Source of the DNA: a plasmid
Reading direction: 5' to 3' (one strand)
Length of the DNA: 64,000 bases
Sequence record: NZ_CP015284.1
Part shown: piece by piece, positions 8,916 to 9,617 of the stretch
Numbering within the stretch: the first letter of the stretch is position 1
Layout of the letters: every line of letters starts with the position of its first letter
The notes under the pieces: generated by a model
Told to the model about the DNA's origin: nothing
What the model saw: only the letters and a program-made list of their open reading frames with translations
Database searches by the model: none
Made by a program: the position numbers and the translations under genes

Positions 8916-9284
8916 TTAATCCTCTGCTACGACTTCAATGTCGAGGAATACGATTTCCCCTTCATCTAAAGCTTCAGAAAACTTATGGCTTTTTCCACAA
9001 AATTCTTTGTAGCCTTTCTTGGTGAAATGGCTACGTGGGGATAAATAATCGATATACCCCTTAACATGATCATTAGACCATGAATTTTTAGGATTTACCT
9101 CCCCAGAAAGAACTAAAGTAGCCCATTCTGAAGCAGAGACCATCATGCCCTCCTCATCAAATAACGACTTTCTTGTTGCCGTTTTCTGTTGTTTTCTTGC
9201 TGCTCTGTAAGTAGAGCTTGTTCTGAAGTGTTTTGGAGAATAGGTATCAACCATTCTCATTTTTTTCGTCATTGATTTTCTCAT
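8916..9284 (-). CDS. Hypothetical basic protein (122 aa), paralog of the next gene
   Basis: Shares TSSTYRAARKQQ, SASEWATLVLSGEV, SWSNDHVKG, SPRSH.TKKG blocks with the 9297..9617 product. Confidence 0.6.
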   Translation of the reverse strand: MRKSMTKKMRMVDTYSPKHFRTSSTYRAARKQQKTATRKSLFDEEGMMVSASEWATLVLSGEVNPKNSWSNDHVKGYIDYLSPRSHFTKKGYKEFCGKSHKFSEALDEGEIVFLDIEVVAED

Positions 9285-9296
9285 TGTCTTTCTCCT

Positions 9297-9617
9297 TTAA
9301 AAAACTAACTCGAGATCCATCATCTCGATAACTTCTGCTTGATTATCTTGTTTAGAGACATACCTTGATTTACCAAGGTACTCTCTGAAGCCTTTCTTAG
9401 TCCAATGGCTACGTGGGGAAACTCTCTCAAGTTTCCCTTTAACATTATCATTAGACCAAGAAGTCTTAGGATCTACCTCCCCAGATAGAACTAAAGTAGC
9501 CCAATCTGAAGCAGAAATCACCATGCCGTCAGCATCAAAAAATACTTTTTTTGATGCTGTCATTTGTTGTTTTCTTGCTGCTCTATAAGTAGAGCTTGTT
9601 TTGAAAGAATTTCTCAT
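9297..9617 (-). CDS. Hypothetical basic protein (106 aa), first gene after the long leader
   Basis: Paralog of 8916..9284. RBS aaaggagaaagacaATG. Confidence 0.6.
   Translation of the reverse strand: MRNSFKTSSTYRAARKQQMTASKKVFFDADGMVISASDWATLVLSGEVDPKTSWSNDNVKGKLERVSPRSHWTKKGFREYLGKSRYVSKQDNQAEVIEMMDLELVF

Follow-up and report, generated by a model that had tools for sequence, protein, structure and literature searches.

Tandem genes for putative AcrIIIA2-family inhibitors of type III-A CRISPR immunity, between a structured leader and ssb on a Streptococcus salivarius-type megaplasmid

Introduction

The AcrIIIA2 family of anti-CRISPR (Acr) proteins was reportedly named, and its structure solved, by Johnson, Goswami, Catchpole et al. 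in Nat Microbiol 2025, 10:3162. Very few inhibitors of type III CRISPR systems are known besides AcrIIIA2. A passage of a later source places it in lytic dairy phages and, summarising Johnson et al. 2025, has AcrIIIA2 together with host enolase stop type III-A complexes from recognising target RNA (PMC13575424). Here, we describe two tandem genes in a 64,000-nt stretch of a plasmid (sequence record NZ_CP015284.1; the whole stretch is hereafter called the window) that encode small basic proteins of 106 and 122 aa (copy 1 and copy 2, respectively), and that we assign by sequence homology to the AcrIIIA2 family.

The pair lies at the head of an operon that continues with genes for SSB, an exonuclease, and an ERF annealase, and this content (Acr pair, SSB, and recombination genes, all co-oriented) matches the description of anti-defence islands in plasmid leading regions (PMC11541004). 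An earlier note on this DNA, made from the sequence alone, had proposed the two proteins as early anti-defence or single-stranded DNA (ssDNA)-protection factors. Homology indicates that they add new members, carried by a plasmid and duplicated in tandem, to a family already in print; the novelty of the proteins themselves is modest.

Identification of the tandem proteins

AcrIIIA2 chains in the PDB match both proteins: in phmmer searches, copy 1 matches chain 9nq7_T over residues 4-105 (E 5.8e-38) and copy 2 matches AcrIIIA2 over residues 18-119 (E 1.3e-35), and both align end to end with the 105-aa AcrIIIA2 chains 9nq7_T and 9no4_R. Streptococcal enolase (16 chains across the 2 entries) and S. 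thermophilus Csm3 are present in both 9no4 and 9nq7, which are thus Csm-enolase-AcrIIIA2 assemblies. Identity to the phage homolog CHPC663_0028 is 67% for copy 1 and 57% for copy 2. An alignment of 21 sequences, phage proteins and both window copies among them, has 33 invariant columns, which are hence kept in both copies. On this homology, the two genes are shown to encode members of the AcrIIIA2 family.

Both copies also match phrog_25846 (copy 1, E 1.4e-40), which PHROGs labels as of unknown function. There is no Pfam model for the pair (a sub-threshold match to DUF6266 was returned for one copy only), no NCBIfam match for either protein, and no match of either to a nucleic-acid-binding family in Pfam or NCBIfam. 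With neither a Pfam nor an NCBIfam model, and with the PHROG function unassigned, such proteins are annotated as 'hypothetical' and would be missed by anti-defence surveys. The remark in the earlier note that they hold no recognisable motif is outdated, as since 2025 the family has had both a name and solved structures.

The two proteins are paralogs, with 61/101 residues identical (60%) and a similarity far beyond chance (BLASTP, E 3e-47); both are basic (pI 9.6 and 9.2), and in each the N-terminus is basic while the C-terminal tail is acidic. The tandem arrangement of basic paralogs had been recognised in the earlier note, and the blocks that it quoted, TSSTYRAARKQQ, SASxWATLVLSGEV, SWSNDxVKG, and SPRSHxTKKG, are indeed present in both proteins; most of the residues in these common blocks are invariant columns of the wider family alignment. 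An identical block, TTTAAAGGAGAAAGACAATG, which includes the start codon, stands in front of both genes (plus strand 9281-9300 and 9614-9633), and the duplicated unit therefore carried its own ribosome-binding site. Nonsynonymous and synonymous divergence between the copies (dN 0.29 and dS 0.67, respectively) give a dN/dS of 0.43, which points to purifying selection on both genes, and the dS value points to an old duplication. Against the phage gene, the dN/dS of the window copies is 0.22-0.37.

Distribution, variation, and copy number

The family is narrow, comprising 71 clusters at 90% identity, and all named clusters among these are from S. salivarius, S. thermophilus, an unnamed Streptococcus species, or Streptococcus phages. 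Members occur in 20 phage records (a single copy in each), 3 PLSDB plasmids, and 2 IMG/VR contigs. A profile search of 1.8 billion representatives added ~20 further, more distant clusters with the motifs YRAARKQQ, VKG, and PRSHWTK. The distant AcrIIIA2-like proteins (P0162-P0180; L097, L098) are 112-134 aa long, some being encoded on metagenomic contigs of 100-350 kb, and their genes are found near those for SSB, UDG, glutaredoxins, and a Wadjet-like (JetD) cluster.

The homologs in S. thermophilus phages sit beside AcrIIA6, in the known anti-CRISPR variable region that follows the lysin gene. In phage CHPC663, the homolog CHPC663_0028 is located between the lysin gene and a cI/cro remnant, and the adjoining CHPC663_0027 is AcrIIA6 (PDB 6eyy, E 1.8e-103); on an S. 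thermophilus contig that encodes phage tail, holin, and lysin proteins, the order is lysin, Gp111, AcrIIA6, homolog. Other anti-CRISPR or anti-defence genes thus accompany the family in several settings: AcrIIA6 in phages, Paratox and RadC-JAB in the same operon as the window pair, and a PcfK/AcrIIA9-family gene in the other arm of the plasmid locus.

Variation within the family is mosaic, in that the C-terminal tail types ...EMMDLELVF and ...FLDIEVVAED combine with different N-terminal halves. The basic N-terminal extension of copy 2, which is 17 residues long, is conserved and has no counterpart in the phage proteins.

Copy number differs among related elements. The ICDC2 plasmid has both copies, each 96% identical to its window counterpart; plasmid pSsal-NU10 (122-aa type) and strain AMBR024 (106-aa type) have a single copy, and the S. 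salivarius chromosome CP066093 carries the same gene module with one acr copy. In a metagenome-assembled genome (L013, 3152-3472), the only acr gene is an exact chimera: its product begins with the N-terminal 71 residues of copy 1 and, from a junction at the conserved SPRSH block, continues as copy 2 to the C-terminus; its sequence indicates the product expected from unequal crossover between tandem paralogs. In plasmid pSAL813 (L096, 6919-8862) there are 0 copies: the stretch corresponding to window positions 8915..9621 is absent, and the leader abuts ssb directly. The ssb-exonuclease-erf module without the acr pair is present in pSAL813 and four other related plasmids, the latter judged by coverage.

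The pair is an accessory cassette between the structured leader and ssb. Variable copy number together with a chimeric allele is a pattern typical of anti-defence loci, and the arms-race family envisaged in the earlier note fits the mosaic N- and C-terminal halves as well as the differences in copy number and the single-copy chimera. The leader-ssb interval appears to be a hot spot, in which other anti-defence genes may sit in related plasmids. In pSAL813, a 433-aa gene upstream of the leader is annotated as '3-isopropylmalate dehydrogenase', which looks out of place.

Proposed mechanism and alternatives

We consider it probable, by analogy with the phage protein, that each plasmid protein recruits host enolase onto the Csm-CRISPR RNA (crRNA) complex and so blocks recognition of target RNA. 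By homology, each small basic protein would bind the glycolytic enzyme enolase of the host, and the resulting enolase-Acr assembly would dock on the type III-A Csm-crRNA complex, where it would block engagement of complementary target RNA. The downstream outputs, namely RNA cleavage by Csm3, the DNase activity of Cas10, and cyclic-oligoadenylate signalling to Csm6, would then not be triggered. The position of the cassette between leader and ssb would lead to co-production of Acr with SSB and the ERF/exonuclease recombination genes, and the transcribed DNA of the plasmid would be shielded, in salivarius-group hosts, against type III-A immunity. Since it is transcription of the invading DNA that triggers this immunity, an inhibitor encoded at the start of the establishment operon would be of advantage to a plasmid. 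Type II-A and III-A systems are listed for S. salivarius (PMC8841824), strains of which can thus harbour the presumed target.

Several points weigh against this mechanism. The copies are 33-43% diverged from the characterised phage protein (identity only 57-67%), and there is no Aca-type regulator adjoining the pair. Structure prediction, which the earlier note had suggested as a check, gave no support: the AlphaFold2 model of the isolated 106-aa copy, made with the 21-sequence alignment as input, is poor (pLDDT 59), which is too low for a fold search and provides no independent structural support. A protein that takes its structure within a complex may plausibly fold poorly on its own. The diverged plasmid copies presumably keep anti-CRISPR activity, as judged from their sequences; leader control of the acr genes is likewise presumed, as is the reason for two copies.

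It is quite unlikely that one or both copies have been neofunctionalised, so as to act on another variant of Csm or enolase, some other host protein, or a further defence system, with the pair broadening host range. Such divergence of function would be consistent with the recombination of two tail types with different N-terminal halves, with the conserved extension of copy 2 that the phage proteins lack, and with paralogs that differ at 40% of positions (dN as given above), and each tail type persists as a single-copy allele in other plasmids. However, all family-invariant residues are kept in both copies and dN/dS is <1 throughout, and since some relatives have just one copy, be it of either type or chimeric, neither type appears indispensable. 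The proposition that the copies are functionally alike and the duplication reflects simple redundancy or dosage, or one copy en route to loss, seems quite unlikely to us as well. The age of the pair inferred from dS is at odds with it, as are two intact frames with a ribosome-binding site each and the retention of the two-copy arrangement, at 96% identity, in the ICDC2 plasmid; what speaks for it is a copy number that ranges from 0 to 2 among near-identical plasmids, and an unequal crossover that has already merged both genes into one in L013.

The position of the pair directly upstream of ssb-exo-erf, in the same orientation, and the basic N-terminus of the proteins would suit ssDNA-protection or recombination accessory factors that work with SSB, the exonuclease, and ERF, but we regard this as highly improbable. 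The ssb-exo-erf module exists without the pair in pSAL813 and in the four plasmids judged by coverage, the phage homologs adjoin AcrIIA6 in the post-lysin variable region rather than ssb or erf, the solved partners are enolase and Csm rather than DNA, and no nucleic-acid-binding family is matched. Of the two roles put forward in the earlier note, anti-defence is thus upheld in the form of anti-CRISPR function, through full-length AcrIIIA2 homology and the AcrIIA6 neighbour in phages, and nothing supports ssDNA protection.

If inhibition of type III-A immunity through enolase is correct, AcrIIIA2 would serve plasmid establishment in the human oral microbiota, beyond its role in phages. The two tail types, the N-terminal extension, and the natural chimera would also provide a ready-made mutational series for mapping the interfaces with enolase and Csm.

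Plasmid context

S. salivarius megaplasmids match the window at 92-94% identity (ICDC2 plasmid and pSsal-NU10) or at 90% (several others), and by this similarity the window belongs to an S. salivarius bacteriocin megaplasmid (~190 kb); the ICDC2 plasmid carries a salivaricin lantibiotic locus. The SSB, exonuclease, and ERF genes named as neighbours in the earlier note are all borne out by family matches (Table 1). The acr operon also holds RadC-JAB and GNAT genes, as well as a gene for a homolog of Paratox, which in prophages serves to block natural competence by binding ComR. When the concatenated small open reading frames of the operon were compared with the PDB for other solved anti-CRISPRs, only RadC and Paratox were matched.

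Table 1. Features of the window, with coordinates from its first nucleotide.
Feature	Coordinates	Strand	Remarks
acrIIIA2-like copy 1	9297..9617	-	106-aa open reading frame; first gene behind left leader
acrIIIA2-like copy 2	8916..9284	-	122-aa open reading frame; 17-residue basic N-terminal extension; different, more acidic C-terminal tail
ssb	8473..8901	-	next gene downstream of acr pair; PF00436, 5e-32
DUF3799 PD-(D/E)XK exonuclease	7548..8411	-	3e-61; Pfam and PHROG matches
ERF annealase	6482..7492	-	4e-19; Pfam and PHROG matches
Paratox (Prx) homolog, 60 aa	1255..1437	-	PDB 6cka, E 7e-12; downstream of acr genes
Left leader copy (5' untranslated region, ~555 nt non-coding)	9618..10174	-	ends at ribosome-binding site/start codon of copy 1
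Right leader copy (inverted)	40189..40736	+	89.6% identical to left; ends at start of first gene of divergent operon
Intrinsic-terminator-like long hairpin and U-run (CUUCUUUGUUAUGC UUUUUUUGUUUUG)	9782..9883	-	inside leader
Promoter-like TTGATA-17-TATACT, extended -10 TG	10164..10192	-	predicted; 10/12 matches in consensus scan
Degenerate repeat-like segment CATGTCACTGGGACAGAACC	10029..10056	+	inside leader; marginal anti-repeat candidate
Terminator-like hairpin after array	10230-10244		predicted
CRISPR-like mini-array: four 36-nt repeats, three 29-30-nt spacers	10261..10493	-	between Cas12-like gene and leader
Promoter-like site preceding array	10603-10630		predicted
Cas12/TnpB-fold protein, 430 aa	10654..11946	-	AlphaFold2 pLDDT 83; Foldseek
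Replic_Relax protein	16595..17863		
PcfK-like protein	44825..45286	+	PF14058, 4e-12; adjoins PcfJ and SNF2/Eco57I-methylase gene

The divergent operon behind the right leader encodes, by Pfam matches, DUF3854, LPD1, helix-turn-helix, VirB11-like ATPase, PcfK/AcrIIA9-family, and PcfJ proteins and a 1838-aa SNF2/Eco57I-methylase. In the ICDC2 plasmid, the protein at the PcfK-like position bears the PGAP name 'Cas9 inhibitor AcrIIA9 family'. Other products encoded in the window are Rep3, ParA, a tyrosine recombinase, a 2834-aa leucine-rich-repeat surface protein, and a Replic_Relax protein; the corresponding loci of related plasmids add AbiE toxin-antitoxin genes and orphan methylases.

The standing of the acr pair as leading-region genes is unproven. 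No oriT or nic site was located, and MOB-suite types the related plasmids as non-mobilizable, so that the earlier note's view of the pair as the first genes expressed after entry can still only be presumed. In vitro transfer of S. salivarius megaplasmids between strains is reported in a passage of PMC5089130, citing Burton 2013.

Structured leader

The pair had been placed directly behind the left leader in the earlier note, and the minus-strand element does end at the copy 1 start codon. Across eight leader copies, which come from five elements, identity is 93% and long blocks are invariant, the first of the conserved blocks being the -10 element of the predicted leader promoter. Compared with shuffled sequences, the leader folds more strongly as sense RNA (z = -7.6) than as antisense RNA (z = -4.9), and the consensus structure contains 166 pairs, of which 4 show compensatory changes and many show A-U to G-U changes. 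The terminator-like hairpin, ~165 nt upstream of the acr start codon, corresponds to columns 301-391 of the consensus structure of leader alignment A4 and is invariant in 8/8 copies. There is no match to the leader in Rfam, either at the gathering threshold or at E values up to 5.

We infer that the leader is an RNA-level attenuation or antitermination element that controls both operons, with the hairpin presumably acting as the attenuator. An ssDNA promoter (Frpo-like) was also considered for the leader and is unlikely: the fold is stronger for the sense RNA, and as the two copies lie on opposite strands, both cannot be T-strand promoters.

Cas12-like gene and CRISPR-like array

Upstream of the leader, the window encodes a 430-aa protein that has no sequence match in Pfam, NCBIfam, or the PDB, and was identified only by a fold search: the top Foldseek matches of its predicted model are Cas12m, Cas12f, and TnpB (E ~1e-10, probability 1.0). 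The CRISPR-like array starts 160 nt after the stop codon of this gene. In Clostridia, Bacillus, and Prevotellaceae, the genes of longer relatives (~500 aa) are closely followed by arrays, and these proteins retain intact RuvC motifs (GIDIG / E / QRDLYSAF). The RuvC triad is not intact in the streptococcal plasmid family, with the RuvC-I Asp replaced by Lys, the RuvC-II Glu by Tyr, and the RuvC-III segment missing, and the 430-aa protein is predicted from these substitutions to be catalytically dead.

The arrays show signs of change at the end near the gene. A 44%-identical homolog in L005 is accompanied by at least seven repeats of the same 66-nt period, the repeat sequence having co-varied; relative to its sibling L006, L005 has an additional spacer at the gene-proximal end, and the repeat flanking it is a perfect duplicate; L012, too, has an additional spacer at this end. 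In the six S. salivarius-group arrays that are readable at both ends, the final repeat is degenerate, and one spacer is common to all seven arrays of this group. No cas1 or cas2 was seen near the Cas12-like gene or the array. Searches for protospacers found none within the window (at <=7 mismatches or as exact matches of >=12 nt), and none in the loci of the compared relatives, PLSDB plasmids, INPHARED phages, or IMG/VR (22-mers).

A BLAST search for a tracrRNA anti-repeat found nothing. The degenerate repeat-like segment inside the leader would form a duplex with the array repeat of -23.5 kcal/mol, versus a shuffle minimum of -22.9 kcal/mol, and may be a decayed repeat or a weak anti-repeat. 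The literature searched held no description of such a Cas12-like/array system in streptococci. In the S. equinus plasmid p1_CNU_G6 (L010, 4766-6032), a similar 36/30 array lies in a 1.27-kb gap ~13 kb from the Cas12-like gene, directly upstream of a type IV secretion system operon (119-aa open reading frame, Clp ATPase, VirB2, and others); adjacency of gene and array is thus not a constant feature. Neither is present in pSAL813.

Because the predicted hairpin after the array separates it from the leader promoter, there is no evidence that the acr genes depend on the Cas12-like system. A more integrated arrangement is conceivable, by which the dead Cas12-like gene, the array, the leader, and the Acr pair would constitute one establishment module: the paralogs would split specificity, by way of their unlike C-terminal tails and the N-terminal extension, for the III-A systems of different salivarius-group hosts, and the plasmid would run a nuclease-free RNA-guided system with gene-proximal spacer uptake, presumably silencing competitors or host genes. 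We consider this unlikely. The most promising parts of the locus for further discovery are the Cas12-like/array unit and the twin leader.

Comparison with known systems

The Cas12-like neighbour resembles Cas12m (type V-M) and the TnpB-like, nuclease-dead repressors TldR in sharing the Cas12/TnpB fold, as predicted, and in adjoining a guide-encoding locus; as in TldR, nuclease residues have been lost, and a C-terminal truncation has removed RuvC-III. Unlike these systems, it is plasmid-borne in streptococci, has no cas1 or cas2 nearby, and is associated with a 36/30 array with signs of polarised spacer gain instead of a fixed omega-RNA guide.

Like plasmid leading-region islands (Samuel et al., Nature 2024, PMC11541004), the window has a co-oriented cluster of Acr, SSB, and recombination genes, along with RadC-JAB, GNAT, and Paratox, on a plasmid of a kind for which transfer is reported, and AbiE and orphan methylases are found in related loci. 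In contrast to these islands, no oriT or Frpo-like ssDNA promoter was found, and the presence of the leader on both strands, with a stronger fold of the sense RNA, points to control at the RNA level.

Other inhibitors that target type III systems are AcrIIIA1 (a protein-RNA complex of staphylococcal phages), AcrIIIB1/B2, and the ring nuclease AcrIII-1. These have no sequence relation to the window proteins, and act by Csm2 binding, Cmr binding, or degradation of cyclic oligoadenylate, whereas AcrIIIA2 co-opts a metabolic enzyme.

The closest counterpart is AcrIIIA2 of S. thermophilus Moineauvirus phages. In these lytic phages the gene is single, has a short sigma-A promoter, and is followed by AcrIIA6, whereas the window has a diverged tandem pair on a megaplasmid, preceded by a 555-nt structured leader with an internal terminator and followed by ssb, and copy 2 departs further from the phage protein in its N-terminal extension and alternative C-terminal tail. 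Despite these differences, the phage and plasmid proteins are homologous over their full length and similar in size (105 vs. 106/122 aa), have a basic N-terminal helix and an acidic tail, and share salivarius-group hosts, and in both settings the gene is promoter-proximal in an early or establishment transcription unit.

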